A stretch of 32,000 nucleotides of DNA from Haloferax volcanii DS2 (GCF_000025685.1 NC_013966.1:390001-422000), one strand, 5' to 3'. Positions 18,662-26,929 are shown, counted from the first letter of the stretch. Numbers and translations are program-made. Notes: generated by a model not told the origin, from the sequence alone.

Positions 18662-19822
18662 TCACGGATTGTACGGTTCGACGATTTTGAGAATAGCGGG
18701 CGCTTCATACCGTCGATTGCGTTGTTGGCCAGTCGTCTCACGCAGGACGCCATCATCCCATAAGCGACGAATCGCCTGGTTCACTGCCGGTTGAGACCGC
18801 CCAAGCGCGTCGACCGCCTGTGGCTCTGTGAGATACGGGTGTTCGATGATGAAATCGATGAGTTCGCGAATCACAACGCCCTGGCCCTGGTACTGTTCTC
18901 GGTAGCGATCGCGCAACGCGAGAAGTTCTCGGGCGACAGTATATCCCTCACGGCCCTGTTCGGCGATCGCCTGAACAAAAAATGACACCCACTCTGTCCA
19001 GGCACCGTCACGACTCACGGCCAGCAGCCTGTCGAGATAGGCATCACGGTTCGCATTGAAATACGACGACGGATACAGATACGGGCCGGGTAACAGCTCC
19101 CACTTGTAGAGGGCTAGCATTACGAGGAGGCGACCGAGTCTCCCATTGCCGTCCTGAAACGGATGAATCGTCTCGAATTGGTAATGGATCAGCGCCAGGT
19201 CAACCAGCGGGGCGTACCTGGGCCCTGACCGGACGTACTGGAGCAGGCTCCGGAGTGCATACGGGATACTCGCCGGGGGAGCCGGAACGAACCGTGCCTC
19301 ACTGAGTGGCGTTCCCGGCTGGTCAATCCCCACGAGGTCCTCACGAAATTCTCCTGGGTTCTTTTGCTCGCCGCGCGCACCCTGCAGCAAAATTTCGTGG
19401 AGTCGACACAGCAAGTCCCGATCTAACTCGGCTCCATCATGGAGCGCCTGAATCCCGGTGGTGATCGCTTCGACGTAGTTTTGTGCCTCCGTGATGTCGG
19501 CTCGCTCGGTCGCGGTTTGTCCGGGCTCTTCACCAGCTTCGCGTCGGTATATGTCCGAGAGCGTGAGTCGTGTCGTCGTCTCGATGTTCGAGGAGTCGAC
19601 AGCCTCACGGTGGATGAGGGGACTGAGGATGACCTCCGGCGAATCCAACCACGTATCCAGGTCTGAGAGCTGACCCACGGCATACATTGCCTCCCCGTTT
19701 TCGCTGACCAGCTCGTGTGTGGCATCGAGATCTGGTGGAAGCGGATCTGGGCTGAACGTGAAGATACCGTCGACCATCTCAACCTCTCCCGGAGCGTCGT
19801 CAACAAAGTCTTCAGGCCTCAT
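18662..19822 (-). CDS. Fic family protein (AMPylase-type) with Fic_N-like region and C-terminal winged HTH
   Basis: The canonical Fic motif is HPFQDGNGRLGRLL. An upstream inhibitory-helix-like segment reads SSNIETT, i.e. (S/T)xxxE followed by T instead of G/N. The C-terminal wHTH is LTEPQAVDALGRSQPAVNQAIRRLWDDGVLRE. The track ORF extends to 19948, but that extension is non-halophilic junk; ATG 19822 (MRPEDFVDD) is preferred. Confidence 0.9.
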   Translation of the reverse strand: MRPEDFVDDAPGEVEMVDGIFTFSPDPLPPDLDATHELVSENGEAMYAVGQLSDLDTWLDSPEVILSPLIHREAVDSSNIETTTRLTLSDIYRREAGEEPGQTATERADITEAQNYVEAITTGIQALHDGAELDRDLLCRLHEILLQGARGEQKNPGEFREDLVGIDQPGTPLSEARFVPAPPASIPYALRSLLQYVRSGPRYAPLVDLALIHYQFETIHPFQDGNGRLGRLLVMLALYKWELLPGPYLYPSSYFNANRDAYLDRLLAVSRDGAWTEWVSFFVQAIAEQGREGYTVARELLALRDRYREQYQGQGVVIRELIDFIIEHPYLTEPQAVDALGRSQPAVNQAIRRLWDDGVLRETTGQQRNRRYEAPAILKIVEPYNP

Positions 19823-19851
19823 TGTTATCCAACACACATGGCCAGGGAGAT

Positions 19852-19963
19852 ATAGATAACGAATATCTATTTCACCTATCCAAAATATCCAATTCCCCAC
19901 CTCAAGATAGGTAGTTCTGAGGTTCGTTATGCAACTCGTCGCCGGCATCGCCCATAGATAACG
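19852..19963 (-). promoter_or_regulatory. AT-rich repeated sites upstream of the Fic gene
   Basis: The 10-mer ATAGATAACG occurs at 19852..19861 and again at 19954..19963. The first copy is part of the palindrome ATAGATA-N5-TATCTAT (19852..19870), 30-48 nt upstream of the Fic ATG. Confidence 0.4.
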
Positions 19964-22030: not shown

Positions 22031-23179
22031 CTAGATCTCATCAAGCAGATCTGCTTTCTTCTCTTCGAATTCCTCTTCTGAGAGAACTCCGTTATCGCGG
22101 AGTTCACCAAGCTTTTCCAGTTGCTCAAGTGGGTCAGTCTCTGTTGATGCTGTTGAGGTAGCCGTCGTGGTATCTCCTGCGATCTGTTCGCGGATGAACC
22201 GCGTCATCTCACGGACTTCTGGCTTCCCAGGGAAGTTTGCTTGGATGTGATACGTCTGGCCAGGAGTCTGGAGTGAGATCCGTTTCCCACCTAAGCCAGC
22301 ATCAAGATCAACACTTGTTATGCTTTGGTAGGGTACTGATCGTTCGTCGGTCCCGGTGAACTGAGGAATCTTTACGACGACACGTTTGTTCGTTGCGGCG
22401 GCTCGTACGTAGCCGCGTGTTCCCTGCTTTCGACTTCGGTCATTGCCCCACCAAGAACTTCCCGCACCAGAACCCTCTACATCAACTGTTTGACCGCGAG
22501 TGAGGTAGTGGACACGCTCATCTGGATCAAGTATATCTCGGATTTTATCTACGCGCTCTTGATTTACATAAGCTCCTTGTGGCGTTGCATCAAGTGGATC
22601 TGTATTGCCGGCACCGGTTCGCATCGTGTCATCCCAAATCGGGCGAAGTGAATGGACAGTATCGAGATCGGAGTTGACAGTAGGCGCATCCTTTGCTTGG
22701 GTTCGGATGTAGTCTGCAGCTGCTTCAATCTCGGATTGAGTGGCTGAATTCGGAATATACATTCTATATTCGTGATTGCTTGTGAAGACTGATAGCCGGT
22801 TTTTTGTCAGTCCATTTTTGGTCTGGACGTCAGTAATTGAGCCATATACTAGCGCGTTCCCACGATTCCCAGCAGCTGTGAGGATGATTCGTTGGTCAGT
22901 TACGAGAACTGTGCTCATGAAATCTTGCTGGTGGCCAGCTCCAACTGCATCTCCGTCACGAATCTGACCTTTTGAGTTATTGGCAAAGTAGTAGTGGGGC
23001 TGTTCGTTCTCGTTCAGTATATTGAGGAATGGACTGTCAGCAAGAATACTCTGAACTGAAAAACTACCTACCCCGCCTGTAGTCTTCGTGAGAATTTTCG
23101 CGGTGACGCTCTTTCCCCGCGCACTATCTGCCAAGCGCTGTGCTTCTGGATTAACATCCCCAGAGTCGAACAGTCCCAT
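22031..23179 (-). CDS. tandem bacterial-PH (YokE/GRAM-like) domain protein with C-terminal SHOCT domain
   Basis: The first PH-like unit reads …PHYYFANNSKGQIR…VLVTDQRIILTAAG…LVYGSITDVQTKNGLTKNRLSVFT… and the second …ERVHYLTRGQ…AAATNKRVVVKIP…VPYQSITSVDLDAGLGGKRISLQT…. The C-terminus LEKLGELRDNGVLSEEEFEEKKADLL is a SHOCT motif. I prefer ATG 23179 (MGLFDSGD); the track start is 23248. The gene is visibly lower in GC than its surroundings. Confidence 0.75.
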   Translation of the reverse strand: MGLFDSGDVNPEAQRLADSARGKSVTAKILTKTTGGVGSFSVQSILADSPFLNILNENEQPHYYFANNSKGQIRDGDAVGAGHQQDFMSTVLVTDQRIILTAAGNRGNALVYGSITDVQTKNGLTKNRLSVFTSNHEYRMYIPNSATQSEIEAAADYIRTQAKDAPTVNSDLDTVHSLRPIWDDTMRTGAGNTDPLDATPQGAYVNQERVDKIRDILDPDERVHYLTRGQTVDVEGSGAGSSWWGNDRSRKQGTRGYVRAAATNKRVVVKIPQFTGTDERSVPYQSITSVDLDAGLGGKRISLQTPGQTYHIQANFPGKPEVREMTRFIREQIAGDTTTATSTASTETDPLEQLEKLGELRDNGVLSEEEFEEKKADLLDEI

Positions 23180-23566
23180 ATCTGATCTAACCAATTTAAC
23201 AGAGTAAAGCTTACTCTCTTGTCCACAACGCATCATACCATCCGTCACATCTCACGAGAGTCATTCAGTTACTGGATGGTCTGCATACGCAATCGCCCCG
23301 GTCAGTACAAACATCTCTTAACATGACATATGCGGTCACGATCTCCTGCGCGGAGTTCGCTGAGTTGTGTAGCGAAGCTGATTCCAGTACCCGAGATCAC
23401 TAACAGGACGACCAAGTACCGTGCTTTTCGAAACTACTGCATCAGTCTGCTGTCGGAGGTTCTGAGATAACTTCGTCTCCAACTGCTTGTCCGTCCACCA
23501 GTTTTCTTCAGACTTGAAACTATTCTCAGTCTCTCAACTTCTCAGCAGCACAGTTGCTGCAGTAGA

Positions 23567-24946
23567 CTCAGTCGATCACATCGGGTTAGAGGAAATGTCT
23601 GCTTTGGGAGGATGTGCAACAACCCGAAGCAGACAGCGAGATAGAGGAAGAGCACCTGCTTAATTTTGTCGTCAACAGCCTTGACGAGGAACTTGCGATA
23701 GACCTTGATGAGGACGTTGAGGTCACGACAGAGACCTTGTACGAGGTCCTCGCCGGCGCCAGCGCCGGCGGGACCTCGATCAACCACGTCTGCGAAACGA
23801 CCGACGACTCACCGCACGCCAACACTGTCCGGGGACATCTCACCGATCAGTTCGACCTTGACACTGTTGAGGCGGTTGGAGACACGCTCCTCCAACGAGA
23901 TGCGCTTGAGACACTCCCGGATCGACCGGTGGGAGGTCGTCGCCGACCTCCACCTCGATCCCTACTACGGCGACGAAGACGAGACAGAAGCGCTGTACTT
24001 CTCGGAAGCGAAACGCGGAACAACGACGTTTCACGCGTATGCGACCCTCTACGCGCGGGTACGCAACAAGCGGTACACGCTGGCGGTGCGCCAGCTTGTC
24101 GCTGGCGACACCACCAGCGATGTCCTCGCTGAGTTCCTCGAACTCCTCAACGGCTTTGACCTCGGCGTCAAGGCCGTCTACCTCGATCGCGGATTCTACA
24201 ACAGCACCTGTCTCGGACTGCTGTACGCCCACAACTACGCCTACGTGATGCCGATCGTCAAGTGGGGCGAGACGATTCAAGAGGAACTCAGCAAAGGCTG
24301 GAGCCGCGAGATCGAACACGATCTCGCCGGCGAGGTGACCTTTCCCGTGTTCATCGACTGCGTCTACCAGCAGGGACGATACGACGAACACGGGGTGGCG
24401 CGTCACGGCTACGCCGCTGACGCGCCGTTTATCGACACGCCACGGGATGCCCGAGAGCACTACAGCAAACGCTTCGGCATTGAGTCGAGTTACCGCTTAG
24501 CCAAGCAGAGCCTCGCATTCACCAGTTCTCAGGACGCTGGTCTACGGCTGGTGATGTTTGTCGTGAGCCTGCTGCTCCAGAACAGCTGGCGGTATCTTCA
24601 CTGGAGGTACGTGGCGGCGCCCCGCCGCGGGGGGCGCCGCCTCTGGAGGTGGCCGTTCACGGAGTTCTGTGAGATGGTGCTGCGGGCCGCCTGGACAGCG
24701 CTTGGTGTGCGCAGGGCTGTTCCAGCGAACCAGCCACTCGACGACCGGTTCTTCCGGTAGCTGTCCACCCGTCCGGACAGCGGTTATGAGTGGTAACACT
24801 GTCGCGTCGGCGGCAGTCCGCCGCCGACAGCGACGGTCCATCCCGAAGACCACACTCACCAGTGCTTCGAAGACGTTCCACGACCAGTTCGATCTGATTC
24901 ACCGCCATCAGACAAGATTACGCGGCTGTCGATGTGATCGACTGAG
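23567..24946 (+). mobile_element. ISH3-family insertion sequence (1380 bp)
   Basis: There are perfect 17 bp terminal inverted repeats: CTCAGTCGATCACATCG at 23567..23583 and its reverse complement at 24930..24946. The transposase matches the ISH3-family pattern I recall (…LLNFVVNSLDEE…, …DLHLDPYYGDEDETEALYFSEAKRGTTTFHAYATLYARVRNKRYTLAVRQL…, …YSKRFGIESSYR…). The flanking 5-mers differ (GTAGA vs ACTTC), so no target duplication is visible. Confidence 0.85.
23614..24760 (+). pseudogene. ISH3-family DDE transposase with a +1 frameshift at 23931..23933
   Basis: The frame of 23614 reads …ALETLPDRPV and then junk (GGRRRPPP). The frame of 23705 resumes EVVADLHLDPYYGDED…. Removing one G from the GGG run in CCGGTGGGAGGTC restores a single ORF of about 381 aa. 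Confidence 0.85.
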
Positions 24947-24961
24947 ACTTCCGTCGAGAGG

Positions 24962-24990
24962 CGACCTCAGCTGTTTGAGCGGTGAGTATT
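24962..24990 (+). repeat. left copy of imperfect direct repeat flanking the GC-rich cassette
   Basis: The sequence is CGACCTC-N11-CGGTGAGTATT. Compare 26805..26843, CGACCTC-N21-CGGTGAGGATT. Confidence 0.45.
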
Positions 24991-25061
24991 ATCGGTACGT
25001 TTGGGGGGCGACTGCTCGGGTTGTGCGCGCTCCGGCGGGCAGTCCGTTCCTGCCGGGCCCG

Positions 25062-25095
25062 GGCGTTTCGCGCTGCCGTTGCGTCTCCGACGGAC
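25062..25095 (+). repeat. direct repeat copy 1 inside the GC-rich tract
   Basis: The sequence is GGCGTTTC[gcgctgc]CGTTGCGTCTCCGACGGAC. Compare copy 2 at 25511..25537. Confidence 0.6.
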
Positions 25096-25510
25096 GGGGC
25101 ACGGTCACGGGGCCGGGTCGGGCCGGGTGCAGCCACCCGATGCCGGTCAGCCCCGAGGGCGGGCCTGCGAGCGCTCGGCCCGCGACCGGGCCGTGACCGA
25201 GACCGGGGTGGCTGCATCTTCACCAGCCGTTGCGGCGGCGCTCCCTCGATGCGGTCGCGCCACCGGCCGGCTGGCTCAGACGTGGCCGCTTGCGCGGTCC
25301 GGGCGGGCTGCTCGCCGTTCGGGCACTTGCCCTCACCCTCGTTCGCCCGGGCTGCGGTGGCTACTGGGGGCTCGCCGTGCTCACCCCCAATATGCCACGG
25401 TCCGGGGCTCACTCAGGGCTGGCTGTGCGGCCTGCCGGGCATGCGCTCAAACCCGGCCGCGACGAGCTGTGGGTCCGCGGGCGTCCAGCCCGCACCGGGC
25501 TGCCGCACGA

Positions 25511-25537
25511 GGCGTTTCCGTTGCGTCTGCGACGGAC
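25511..25537 (+). repeat. direct repeat copy 2 inside the GC-rich tract
   Basis: The sequence is GGCGTTTCCGTTGCGTCTGCGACGGAC, identical to copy 1 at 26/27 positions apart from a 7 nt indel. The copies are 442 nt apart and fall in different reading frames. Confidence 0.6.
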
Positions 25538-25805
25538 AGGTGTCGGCGAGGCGCCGACCCGCGGTGACCGGCTGGGTATATGGTGGTGACCGCGCGCTCA
25601 CCTCGAGGTTCACCCCCCGAACTTGTCTGGGGGGGCGCCGTCGGTGCCGCGCCGCGCCGGACAGGGTCCGGCGTGAAGGCGCGGCGCGGGCACCTCGGTG
25701 ACGGCGTCATCGGTTGACGTCGGAGCCGTGGCTCAAGTGTTGGTTCGTGAGAATCCCGCGAGTGAGGTCGCGGGCGTCGGCGCGTTAGCGCCTTCAGGAA
25801 CAACG

Positions 25806-26705
25806 ATGTCTAGTAACAACTCCAGTCGAAAGGTAGTTTCGGTGGCTGAACAGGCGTTCGAGCAAGCGGATGAGACGACAGTCGACGAAGACGGGTTCGA
25901 GGTCGTCGACGAGACGCCGACGTTTCAGGCGACGGTGCAACAGGAGATCCAAGCAAAGGTGGATGCGAACCACCCAGATGGGATCGCAGACACGAGCGAC
26001 GAGCGGATTGACGGGGTGACGTTGGCCCAAGAAGAGCGCATTCGAGCGCGGGAAGCGGAACTCGAACGGATTAGTGCCCGTGCGGAACTGGGGTCGCAAG
26101 AGGGTCGTGAGGCGCGGTCGCGGGTGATTGCGGCCGAGCGGAGCGCTGGGCGACGGCGGCAGTTCCAGAAGCGCGCGGCAAGTGTGAACCCGATGGCGGA
26201 CCCCGACCGGGCGGATCCCCGGACGGAGCTAACCCAAGCACAGTTGGGCGCAGTGAACTCTCAGGCAACACGGTTGGCGGAGAAGCTGGATGGGTGGTCA
26301 CGAGCGGCGATCAGTCGGCGGCTGAGCGAGGCGGTGTTGGGTGGCAAGGACATGATGTCGGCAACTGTGAGCGTGTTCGAGGAACTCGAAGGCGCACCGG
26401 GGACGATGGTGCCGATCGGGAAACTGGAGGGCGTGTCGCGACGCGAGGTGTGCGTTGAAGGGACGCTGACGACAGTGTGGGAGTCGGAGTCGCCGGCGAT
26501 TCAGCAAGCGGGGCTCCTCGAAGACGAAAGCGGGCAGGTGAAGCTGACGAGTTGGAAGGCCTCGGACGTGCCGTGGATTCGCGAGGGCGAACGCGTGCGG
26601 ATTCACGGAGCGGCGCGGAACTGGTACGATGGGCGCGTCTCGGTGGCGCTGACGGGGTGGACGACCGTGATGTTCCCCGAGCGCGACGCTTGGTGGGACG
26701 CCTAA
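25806..26705 (+). CDS. OB-fold nucleic-acid-binding protein (acidic N-terminus, basic/coiled-coil middle, C-terminal OB fold)
   Basis: I prefer ATG 25806 (MSSNNSSRKVV); the track start is 25698. The C-terminus VCVEGTLTTVWESESPAIQQAGLLEDESGQVKLTSWKASDVPWIREGERVRIHGAARNWYDGRVSVALTGWTTV has the beta-strand pattern of an RPA/tRNA-anticodon-type OB fold. The middle is Arg/Glu-rich (REAELERISARAELGSQEGREARSRVIAAERSAGRRRQFQKR). A hand-counted line (26101) is about 78% G+C. Confidence 0.7.
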   Translation: MSSNNSSRKVVSVAEQAFEQADETTVDEDGFEVVDETPTFQATVQQEIQAKVDANHPDGIADTSDERIDGVTLAQEERIRAREAELERISARAELGSQEGREARSRVIAAERSAGRRRQFQKRAASVNPMADPDRADPRTELTQAQLGAVNSQATRLAEKLDGWSRAAISRRLSEAVLGGKDMMSATVSVFEELEGAPGTMVPIGKLEGVSRREVCVEGTLTTVWESESPAIQQAGLLEDESGQVKLTSWKASDVPWIREGERVRIHGAARNWYDGRVSVALTGWTTVMFPERDAWWDA

Positions 26706-26804
26706 CGGCGCGCGGCGGCCTTCTTTTTTGCTGGTGGCCGGGCCGACCCAGACCCCACCGCCCCACCCTCCGCTCCGTGCTCGCAGACGCTGCGCGCGCA
26801 GCCA

Positions 26805-26843
26805 CGACCTCTAGAACTCTTTTTCGACGTCACGGTGAGGATT
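26805..26843 (+). repeat. right copy of imperfect direct repeat flanking the GC-rich cassette
   Basis: The sequence is CGACCTC-N21-CGGTGAGGATT. It begins 2 nt after a perfect 14 bp palindrome, GCTGCGCGCGCAGC (26789..26802). GC content drops sharply from here on. Confidence 0.45.
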
Positions 26844-26929
26844 GGTGCCTTCGATATTCTCCAATGAAAGTGACCGTTAAACTGGGGTATCACTATCATG
26901 ACTATTACCCTGTCTCCCCACCGACTAGC

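Follow-up and report, generated by a model that had tools for sequence, protein, structure and literature searches.

Why does a block of unusually GC-rich DNA, much of it non-coding, accompany a single gene for an OB-fold protein in Haloferax volcanii, and is it an inserted element or a part of the gene's own equipment? The block occupies positions 24947 to 26843 of a 32,000-nucleotide (nt) stretch of Hfx. volcanii DS2 (GCF_000025685.1, NC_013966.1:390001-422000), referred to here as the window, which is read on one strand, 5' to 3', and numbered from its first letter. A preliminary description, made from this sequence alone, had seen in the block a cassette bracketed by imperfect direct repeats beside the end of an insertion sequence (IS), viz. 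a non-autonomous integrated element or satellite, a fragment of a high-GC plasmid or provirus, or an RNA-plus-binding-protein module. The comparisons reported here show the block to be one copy of a conserved module of haloarchaeal megaplasmids, with defined limits, that is built round a gene of the Rfa5/Rfa6 type. For the DNA upstream of this gene, the explanation that we consider moderately probable is a long structured 5' leader RNA, which would control the gene for a protein resembling single-stranded-DNA-binding proteins (SSB) in cis and post-transcriptionally.

A conserved module of haloarchaeal megaplasmids

The gene was detected in 187 stretches of contigs drawn from one genome per species; the best 80 of these 187 were taken for comparison and, together with plasmid loci, make up the 84 loci from many haloarchaeal genera to which the following statements refer (83 sources in the covariance-model searches). 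In the window, the parts of the module are the following:

24996 to 25805, + strand: GC-rich non-coding region of type A, the proposed structured 5' leader; 74% G+C and poor in A
25806 to 26705, + strand: gene for a Rfa5/Rfa6-type protein of 299 amino acids (aa), identified with Pfam, NCBIfam, a PDB profile and AlphaFold2/Foldseek
26720 to 26728, + strand: oligo-T run TTCTTTTTT, conserved 15-25 nt past the stop codon in nearly all loci
26730 to 26809, + strand: conserved C-rich 3' tail, ending with the palindrome CTGCGCGCGCAG and then CCACGACC, where similarity between loci stops

The order of these parts is the same in all 84 loci: 0.4-1.1 kb of GC-rich non-coding DNA, the gene, the oligo-T run and a C-rich tail of about 80 nt. 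Every fetched locus has 66-79% G+C over the 400-1000 nt before the ATG and falls back to the local background further out. When the window was compared with the loci by BLAST, the gene was matched in 83 of 83, the 100 nt past the stop codon in 53-60 and the window's upstream sequence in 12-14, and the upstream region exists in at least two forms. Type A, the rarer form, is found in 14 loci including the window (Haloferax, Halolamina, Halopenitus, and Halorubrum) and extends for about 970 nt between a G-run and the ATG; type B, found in about 70 loci, measures 400-720 nt. In the plasmid database PLSDB, the type B non-coding region is present in 165 records at 251 places, compared with 160 records and 222 places for the gene, and it is almost nowhere annotated; the type A region occurs five times, each time with the gene adjacent. 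Across the loci compared, the element is thus shown to be always paired with the gene and in a single orientation. The pairing of non-coding DNA with an OB-fold gene, which the preliminary description had suggested looking for elsewhere, is therefore general, and its RNA-plus-binding-protein option holds as far as this pairing in all 84 loci is concerned, the RNA nature of the first partner being presumptive.

The limits of the module are well defined. The 5' boundaries are sharp, the commonest type B form beginning with GAAAGCCCTCGG, and among Haloferax the left edge of type A lies near 24968, at ACGTG/AGCTG-TTTGRG-nGGTGAGn in the alignment of the 14 type A loci. The 3' tail has two sequence variants, and that of the window ends sharply at CTGCGCGCGCAGCCACGACC (26790-26809); at about 26800 the BLAST coverage drops from 53-60 loci to 16, the sequence of the terminus occurs exactly once in the window, and the flanks beyond it are unrelated between loci. 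Oligo-T is an archaeal signal for transcription termination, and the oligo-T run behind the stop codon is likely the terminator of the gene. The palindrome CTGCGCGCGCAG is a perfect one of 12 bp (26790-26801), placed 8 nt before the right terminus, and the insert just before it varies in length from 4 to more than 60 nt between loci.

The block had been described as about 80% G+C over 1.8 kb. A GC anomaly does exist, but this figure is overstated and the anomaly is confined to the 0.8-kb non-coding part and the short tail: in a sliding profile, positions 24947-26843 have 68.5% G+C, the ORF-free part (free of open reading frames; 25000-25805) 74.1% (71-78.5% across 200-nt windows), the gene 64.3%, and the 3' tail counted from the stop codon (26706-26809, 104 nt) 76.0%, and two of the 31 sixty-base lines between 25000 and 26800 reach 78%. 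The whole window has 58.6% and not the low-to-mid 60s ascribed to the remainder of it, the neighbouring beta-propeller gene 54%, and about 53% of 24947-26843 is non-coding instead of about 45%. Because the same high G+C is found in front of the gene in every genus sampled, it is no mark of foreign origin.

By profile and structure comparison, the ORF of the window is a single-OB-fold RPA/SSB homologue of the Rfa5/Rfa6 type, a family already known. The protein begins with a disordered acidic N-terminus, is helical from about residue 73 to 195 and has its OB fold at the C-terminal end (about 214-290), and it is matched by Pfam PF01336 (6.9e-5), by the NCBIfam replication factor A model NF005553 (8.5e-13) and by the PDB profile 2kbn (1.4e-10). 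An AlphaFold2 model from a deep alignment (mean pLDDT 78) finds archaeal RPA/SSB, Teb1, and POT1 OB domains in Foldseek, with 2ken at 1.3e-8 and a TM-score of 0.73 on the target; for the helical N-terminal region, Foldseek gave no informative neighbour beyond RPA AROD-OB matches at a root-mean-square deviation of 10 Å. The gene is 94% identical in DNA to those of the Haloferax plasmids pHGLR1 and pSVX82-3, and the protein is 71-76% identical over 100% of its length to many haloarchaeal entries named 'DNA-binding protein' or 'replication factor A', including those of Hfx. volcanii and Hbt. salinarum. Grouped at 90% identity, the family has 983 clusters, and at 50% identity it has 300 (E <= 0.001); all matches that carry an organism name are haloarchaeal. 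About 160-166 plasmid records carry the gene, and the majority of the 80 genome loci are situated on plasmid records or on contigs of plasmid size.

The members of this family, plasmid-borne single-OB-fold RPA/SSB homologues, have been named Rfa5/Rfa6 in Hbt. salinarum NRC-1 and HVO_A0019/A0374/A0409 in Hfx. volcanii, and they are non-essential and weakly expressed, their deletion causing about 15-fold more sensitivity to mitomycin C (PMC5924565). The window protein resembles them in its length of about 299 aa, in its C-terminal OB fold and in the 74.9% DNA identity of its gene to the pNRC100 'DNA-binding protein' gene of Halobacterium (NC_001869). That study deals with coding sequences only and mentions neither the upstream region nor the 3' tail (PMC5924565), and it was the only publication met with, on the protein, when Rfam 15 and the searchable literature were consulted for a description of the upstream element, the P1-P4 motif described below and the tail. 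The gene is hence known, and in these sources its upstream element, motif, and tail are apparently undescribed.

The upstream region and the P1-P4 motif

When Haloferax is compared with the four distant type A loci, the variable sites of the upstream region are spread evenly over the three positions of a codon (78, 77, and 78; p=0.996), as against 93, 77, and 201 in the gene, and 132 gaps of one base occur in the upstream alignment. Pairs of genomes that are 82-85% identical in the upstream region are 70-71% identical in the gene. The even spread over codon positions, the one-nucleotide gaps and an identity above that of the gene indicate that selection acts on the nucleotide sequence itself; in these alignments, the upstream part is shown to be non-coding and to be under purifying selection stronger than that on the coding sequence.

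The same data bear on the view that the GC-rich tract is a decayed gene or a functionless foreign fragment of high G+C, to which we give next to no credence. Long spurious ORFs on both strands and the annotation of a 'hypothetical protein' over the tract would agree with such a view; however, the tract has no codon periodicity, it carries frame-breaking indels throughout, its conservation across genera exceeds that of the functional neighbour gene, and the same feature is present in all 84 loci. No match was found in Pfam for the long ORFs over the GC-rich part, and a hidden or decayed gene was rejected on the flat periodicity, the indels and this Pfam result. The 'hypothetical protein' has been annotated over the type A region of two Hfx. 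alexandrinus plasmids (NZ_CP106967.1 and NZ_CP106970.1); it is probably a spurious call, because the type A region is without codon periodicity, and its use in annotation is unwarranted.

Evidence for structure is much stronger for the last ~180 nt before the gene, because of double base changes in the helices that we designate P1-P4 and because a covariance model recovers them across the two upstream types. In the window, these elements are placed as follows:

25626 to 25815, + strand: proximal leader motif of the whole gene family (covariance model R1, 27.6 bits, E ~1e-7)
about 25643 to 25694, + strand: P1, a long bulged hairpin with the conserved junction GAAGGCGCG
25755 to 25774, + strand: P2, CCCGCGA-GTGAGG-TCGCGGG
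25779 to 25792, + strand: P3, GGCGC-GTTA-GCGCC
25795 to 25805, + strand: remnant of P4, CAGGAACAACG, its loop and 3' arm missing

In all loci the order is P1, a purine-rich linker, P2, P3 (GGCGC-GNNA-GCGCC), UUC, P4, and A-AUG. Type A loci have GCCGCGCCGCGCC as the stem of P1, type B loci have GCGCTCTCGCTCGCGCC, and a locus that encodes a homologue of 42% protein identity has CCGCTCGCGCC, the partner strand being complementary throughout; P2 shows a double change from CCGCG/CGCGG to CCACG/CGTGG, and P3 one from GGCGC/GCGCC to GGCGTC/GACGCC. Counted over 67 loci, changes on both sides of P1-P3 affect 6 pairs and 15 cells of the alignment, compared with 1.2 and 1.3 after shuffling, and none of 500 shuffles reaches the observed values. 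P4 is found in about 70 of the 80 distinct loci, where it takes the form of at least 12 different compensating stems (e.g. GGUAC/GUACC, GGAAC/GUUCC, GGAGU/ACUCC, GGAAUC/GAUUCC, GGUCU/AGACC, and GGAUC/GAUCC) that end 1-2 nt before the AUG. In many loci its loop is GGUGA, and a tetramer resembling the Shine-Dalgarno (SD) sequence lies at -22 to -4 in 58 of the 80 loci, as against 36% of control windows. The helices are thus shown, in these alignments, to be supported by compensatory base changes.

The type B structure was examined helix by helix and with the covariance model R1, which was trained on 23 loci of type B only. This model recovers every type A locus and scores 52.7 bits (E ~5e-16) at L086, where the homologue of 42% protein identity is encoded. 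Every one of the 83 sources yields exactly one full-length match, on the strand of the gene and ending at the ATG, and the only extra matches of the model are to the palindromic P1 on the opposite strand.

Further upstream, the type A region of the window contains these elements:

24973 to 24978, + strand: TTTGAG, a hexamer that weakly resembles a TATA box, some 28 nt ahead of the G-run at 25004, its role as a promoter being putative
25076 to 25093, + strand: first copy of the hairpin CCGTTGC-GTCT-SCGACGG (direct-repeat family D1), with a U.G pair on the + strand
25128 to 25216, + strand: helix TGCAGCCACCC / GGGTGGCTGCA with an internal stem-loop, a perfect 11-nt inverted repeat (I24; helix 9)

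The repeated hairpin is present in three copies in the full-length relatives and is invariant across four genera, and in helix 9 Halolamina, Halopenitus, and Halorubrum have double changes at two pairs (CG to UA and AU to GC). The type A consensus obtained with RNAalifold has 294 pairs and leaves 98.6% of cells paired, compared with 38-44% in slid alignments. Against 500 column shuffles, changes on both sides are found at 15 pairs instead of 8.7 (a value reached by 1 in 500) and in 39 cells instead of 12.3 (reached by none), a control that related sequences without structure can exceed too. The far-upstream fold is hence a plausible model and no more than that, because most of its helices never vary and because kinship alone can exceed such controls.

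A comparison of the window and of loci L001, L003, and L086 with the 4227 models of Rfam 15, which include group II introns, riboswitches, and large non-coding RNAs, gave no match at the gathering threshold and, with E up to 10, three matches at chance level (11-18 bits). A known RNA family (RNase P, SRP RNA, riboswitches, or a group II intron) was rejected on this result; the idea of a group II intron had stemmed from the GUGYG-like left end and from the layout of structure, ORF, and structure.

Three further observations concern this region. The sequence TCACCTC, which is identical to the anti-SD end of 16S rRNA, is found at 25598-25604, about 200 nt before the AUG, and is conserved in both upstream types; the GGUGA loop of P4 is complementary to it, and a sequestering interaction between the two is conceivable. 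The P1 region of type B (columns 26-81 of alignment A5) consists of three mutually complementary segments, in which the long stem A:B competes with GCGCCC-loop-GGGCGC plus GCUCGCG-AAGG-CGCGAGC, and this is possibly the layout of a conformational switch, as predicted from the pairing. Natrinema gari has, about 100 nt ahead of its regular P1, a second palindrome of the P1 kind (L079, 2750-2805).

A proposed structured 5' leader and the readings set against it

Several features set the + strand of the upstream region apart. In 13 of 13 type A sequences it is predicted to fold 12-43 kcal/mol more stably than its complement; that of L001 has 163 U and 95 A (about 1.7 times more U than A) and 374 G and 345 C; G.U pairs are about twice as frequent on it as on the complement; the repeated hairpin CCGUUGC-GUCU-GCGACGG holds an invariant U.G pair; and the one-sided changes in P1-P3 are G.U wobbles. 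Because a hairpin with an SD-like loop abuts the AUG, and because of this stability, composition, and G.U evidence, we conclude that the proximal motif at least acts as a putative + strand RNA, i.e. as a 5' leader. Between the structured region and the gene no terminator was found (oligo-T or other), nor any promoter-like element in the last 60 nt before the ATG, and since the conservation is also unbroken, the whole 0.4-1 kb would be co-transcribed with the gene.

On this explanation, a very long 5' RNA of the + strand would be transcribed together with the gene; its last ~180 nt (P1-P4) would be common to the gene family, and the part further upstream would exist in at least two forms. The folding round the start codon (P4 and P3) could serve as the switch, as P4 ends 1-2 nt before the AUG and often carries the SD-like GGUGA loop, and the single-stranded purine-rich junctions (GAAGG and GGAAAA) would be possible sites for the OB-fold protein, which by binding its own leader might exert autogenous control in the manner of T4 gene 32. 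Action in cis and binding by the protein are steps that we infer. In phage T4, the SSB encoded by gene 32 controls its own translation autogenously, by binding to the 5' leader of the mRNA that encodes it. The two cases are alike in layout, which is all that is compared, and in their feedback logic, viz. an SSB-type gene behind a structured leader with folding beside the initiation region; they differ in that the T4 leader is short (a pseudoknot and an unstructured tract) whereas the present region is 0.4-1.1 kb long, GC-rich, and multi-domain, and in that the proteins are unrelated beyond the OB fold.

A number of observations weigh against a leader of this kind. Most haloarchaeal mRNAs lack a leader, and one of 0.4-1 kb would hence be exceptional. 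We also infer both the transcription of the region and its start site. The candidates for a type A promoter are weak (the hexamer TTTGAG/ATTTCT about 28 nt before the G-run and the internal GGGTATATGG at 25575-25584), and no conserved TATA-like element was found about 27 nt before the type B 5' boundary GAAAGCCC. When folding was done without G.U pairs, the departures were A.C in 29 cells and G.U in 9, and the two strands do not differ in consensus folding energy, for which reasons the strand evidence is mixed outside P1-P4. Most type A helices are invariant and hence uninformative; P1 has an uncompensated T.C in 13 loci and P3 a C.A in 14. In the window itself, P4 and one internal domain are absent, and either they are not strictly required or this copy is impaired. 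Finally, the leader model leaves the conserved tail past the oligo-T run unaccounted for. A promoter at the sharp type B 5' boundary was itself rejected, as there is no enrichment of A/T near -27.

The size of the region also raises the question of whether it is a separate gene for a large non-coding RNA, whose product would form a ribonucleoprotein with the OB-fold protein or act in trans. Its length of 0.4-1.1 kb and its conservation above that of coding sequence would suit such a gene, as would its modular domains with three identical hairpins, which could be protein-binding sites, and its constant pairing with one protein gene; some bacterial large non-coding RNAs pair with partner protein genes, and OB folds of such a type bind single-stranded nucleic acid. 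However, conservation and structure continue unbroken to the AUG, which P4 abuts, the oligo-T run or other terminator to be looked for before the gene is missing, the gene would be left without a promoter of its own, and no copy of the element without the gene was found. We therefore regard a separate RNA gene as rather unlikely. The large bacterial non-coding RNAs OLE, GOLLD, ROOL, and HEARO/omega RNA were found as long GC-rich intergenic regions. The present element is like them in being large, multi-domain, and cross-genus, in its association with mobile replicons and with a single partner protein gene and in standing out by its intergenic G+C, and differs from them in its lack of an Rfam 15 match, in being contiguous with the start codon and in being archaeal; because of this contiguity, the leader is more probable than a free-standing RNA. 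A wider proposal, namely that the element represents a new class of large structured RNA (0.4-1.1 kb) of haloarchaeal megaplasmids which forms a functional unit with the Rfa5/Rfa6 protein, is in our estimation a doubtful one, if a little less so. The unit could be a ribonucleoprotein, or the RNA could sense DNA that is single-stranded or damaged and govern the maintenance or repair of the plasmid, and the C-rich tail with its palindrome could be, as this proposal predicts, a second cis site of the same system, the element then going beyond the role of a passive leader for translation.

The mixed strand evidence bears on another reading, in which the element works not as RNA but as a single-stranded DNA hairpin signal of the Frpo/ssi kind, from which transcription or priming would start on an entering or displaced single strand, so that the SSB-like protein is made first. 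In the leading regions of conjugative plasmids, ssb and psiB are preceded by Frpo/ssi, promoters that work as single-stranded DNA; we know of no archaeal equivalent. Both there and here an ssb-like gene of a plasmid has immediately in front of it an element that is non-coding, strand-specific, and rich in hairpins, and in the present case the orientation is fixed (83 of 83 sources, ending at the ATG). The hairpins are long and near-perfect, the strand asymmetry is rich in G+T, a T.G mismatch is tolerated in DNA hairpins too, and the comparison of A.C with G.U departures does not favour RNA. Three of the host plasmids are typed in PLSDB as having MPF_T-like mating-pair genes; the plasmids, however, are all typed as non-mobilizable. 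The Frpo/ssi elements hold bacterial sigma-70 boxes within the DNA hairpin, whereas here no archaeal promoter boxes recur in the stems. The look of a promoter box in a hairpin is limited to one predicted TATAT helix of type A (helix 30), in which GGGTATATGG, the sole AT-rich motif of this type, pairs with CCGTATACCC; type B is without a TATAT motif, and the window has lost one arm of the TATA-containing helix, since its deleted segment contains CACCACCGTATACCC, the predicted partner of GGGTATATGGTGGTG. The P4 hairpin with its SD-like loop beside the AUG is moreover a feature of an mRNA and points to RNA. Taking both sides together, we hold a single-stranded DNA signal to be quite improbable.

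A 5' leader of the kind preferred here would be unusual for its length, for its conservation above that of the coding sequence and for its occurrence in Archaea, where, to our knowledge, few cis-acting RNA structures are known. The element is carried by well over a hundred megaplasmids of many genera and is tied to a gene family for which sensitivity to mitomycin C is the one phenotype known. If the interpretation is correct, it would be among the largest and most widespread archaeal cis-regulatory RNAs, or else a new large non-coding RNA; if it is merely a leader, it would make a modest addition to archaeal gene regulation. Copies are present in tractable hosts, with three on pHV4 of Hfx. volcanii and others on pNRC100 and pNRC200 of Hbt. 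salinarum.

Flanks, mobility and the window copy

Is the module, then, also a mobile cassette, as its flanks had been thought to indicate? The features concerned are these:

23576 to 24939, + strand: ISH3-family insertion sequence with ends CAGTCGATCACATCG ... CGATGTGATCGACTG (15-nt, inverted), outside the module
24962 to 24990, + strand: left 'repeat', CGACCTC-N11-CGGTGAGTATT, which overlaps the left edge of the conserved module and is not significant in the shuffle test
25518 to 25535, + strand: fused hairpin copy 2/3, a deletion junction specific to the window copy (alignments A1 and A2)
26805 to 26843, + strand: right 'repeat', CGACCTC-N21-CGGTGAGGATT, its first five bases being the module terminus and the remainder flank common to a few Haloferax plasmids

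The flanking strings of the preliminary description are indeed present (CGACCTC at 24962 and 26805, CGGTGAGTATT at 24980-24990, and CGGTGAGGATT at 26833-26843), but the similarity between them is at chance level. In a local alignment of 24947-25000 with 26780-26860, the best match is a single 11-mer with one mismatch (score 17), and a score at least as high is obtained with 173 of 2000 dinucleotide shuffles and, when real segments of the window with equal spacing are paired, in 22 of 310 cases; in a ranking of the region's short direct repeats, the 11-mer comes 20th. The left 'repeat' lies partly in ordinary flank and partly in the start of the conserved region, and the right CGACCTC overlaps the conserved right terminus. 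At the level of the family, similarity between the two ends is likewise absent (median z 0.8 for direct and 0.2 for inverted matches), and an nhmmer search of the upstream region with a profile of the tail gave E >= 0.83 and fewer matches than the reversed control. Direct repeats of att type were rejected on the shuffles, the real-pair control, the family-level alignments and the nhmmer profile, and the interpretation of the flanks as attL/attR or as a target duplication accordingly falls by the shuffle comparison that had been put forward with it. Long-range pairing of leader and tail, or circularisation, was considered separately and rejected, their complementarity being no greater than that of shuffles.

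In content, the block agrees with the earlier account of one recognisable protein, an OB fold, and no mobility gene: an ORF scan and Pfam found no integrase, Rep, transposase, or recombinase in it, the OB-fold gene being the sole family match, and the neighbouring genes differ from locus to locus. No target duplications surround the module. Searches of PLSDB for an empty site, which had been suggested as a check, yielded only occupied sites or a 5'-truncated copy: the left flank matched its own source record only, and the right flank led to a second plasmid of Hfx. gibbonsii that carries a 5'-truncated module. This copy (pHG1 of Hfx. gibbonsii ARA6, L085, 3501-3971) stands in the right-hand context of the window and retains the last ~365 nt of the gene and the tail; it comes after about 1 kb of AT-rich sequence (31-46% G+C) without listed genes. 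Protein searches of the 50,697 phage records of INPHARED and of IMG/VR contigs (the latter queried with the single protein and with the protein alignment A3) returned no viral relatives, and an origin from a virus or satellite was rejected for want of a match in either collection. One pair of copies within a genome is identical (L049/L050); all others have 63-95% identity to each other, and because of this divergence recent transposition is, as judged from these copies, not indicated.

A mobile or integrated element of the non-autonomous kind, be it a cassette whose repeats are att-like or terminal, a satellite, or a rolling-circle type with a hairpin near its 3' end, is on this evidence very unlikely. 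Such an element would account for the sharp ends of the module between flanks that are unrelated from locus to locus, for the multiple copies per genome, for the GC-rich palindrome 8 nt from the right end and for a mini-insert that the 5' start and the 3' tail have in common in 8 loci; the flanks of Haloferax plasmids also reassort, pSVX82-3 having the left flank of the window without the right and pHGLR1 the right without the left. Homologous recombination between dispersed copies of about 2 kb would, however, be enough to explain these reassorted flanks, and the insignificant repeats, the lack of similarity between the ends, the missing recombinase, Rep, transposase, and target duplications, the divergence of same-genome copies, the sole candidate for an empty site being a truncated copy, and the absence from phage and viral collections all stand against it. 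For a rolling-circle element of the IS91 or Helitron kind, the palindrome was found but no Rep gene, and the same-genome copies are too unlike one another. The inserted cassette, satellite, or provirus fragment of the preliminary description is unsupported on the same grounds.

The earlier claim of an IS end beside the block is correct. The ISH3-family element has inverted ends and a 5-bp target duplication, AGACT, at 23571-23575 and 24940-24944, and pSVX82-3 of Hfx. lucentense carries the exact target in uninterrupted form (L084, 3972-4011); its ORF (23705-24760) has a weak DDE_Tnp_1 match, and transposases annotated as 'ISH3-like' are found in related plasmids. By these marks it is a recent, later, and unrelated insertion, about 25 nt to the left of the module and between it and a PH-domain gene.

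The window copy of the module is itself altered. It is without about 160 nt that 12 relatives keep, the junction lying inside the repeated hairpin CCGTTGCGTCTGCGACGG; the segment lost is that between copies 2 and 3, and in L008 (~2660-2700) a larger segment between copies 1 and 3 is missing. Since the junctions of both deletions lie in them, the repeated hairpins appear to act as recombination points, and the loss of ~160 nt is, as read from this junction, due to recombination between two of them. The loop and 3' arm of P4 are also missing (CAGGAACAACG-ATG), as they are in L006, L007, and L010. The gene of the window is intact, and in the window and L008 the central 160-600 nt of type A could be lost with the gene staying intact.

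Some minor observations concern the surroundings of the module. The mini-insert consists, on the + strand, of a GAGAC...GTCTC hairpin followed by GCCCTCGTTCGC and is located either at the 5' start of the upstream region or within the 3' tail; relative to the ATG, it lies at -688 in L003, -567 in L041, and -1297 in L052, and at +972 to +984 in L002, L011, L032, and L072. It may be a tiny mobile or recombining hairpin unit, of which the window carries only the CCCTCGTTCGC part, at 25336. In about 33 of the 84 loci, the next gene downstream is a TFIIB/TFB paralogue, placed 150-250 nt past the end of the module (e.g. L025, L056, L070, L076, L077, and L083) and preceded by GTTTAT and a short GC hairpin; some other loci have a small downstream ORF resembling a C2H2 zinc finger, and the window has instead a PQQ-like beta-propeller gene. 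On the other side, the neighbours in the window are encoded on the - strand, viz. a bPH_3 (bacterial-PH) protein with a C-terminal SHOCT and a Fic/DOC family protein (22031-23248 and 18662-19948), and the remaining cargo of the window, a peptide ABC transporter, hydantoinase A/B, and a cyclase, is typical of megaplasmids.

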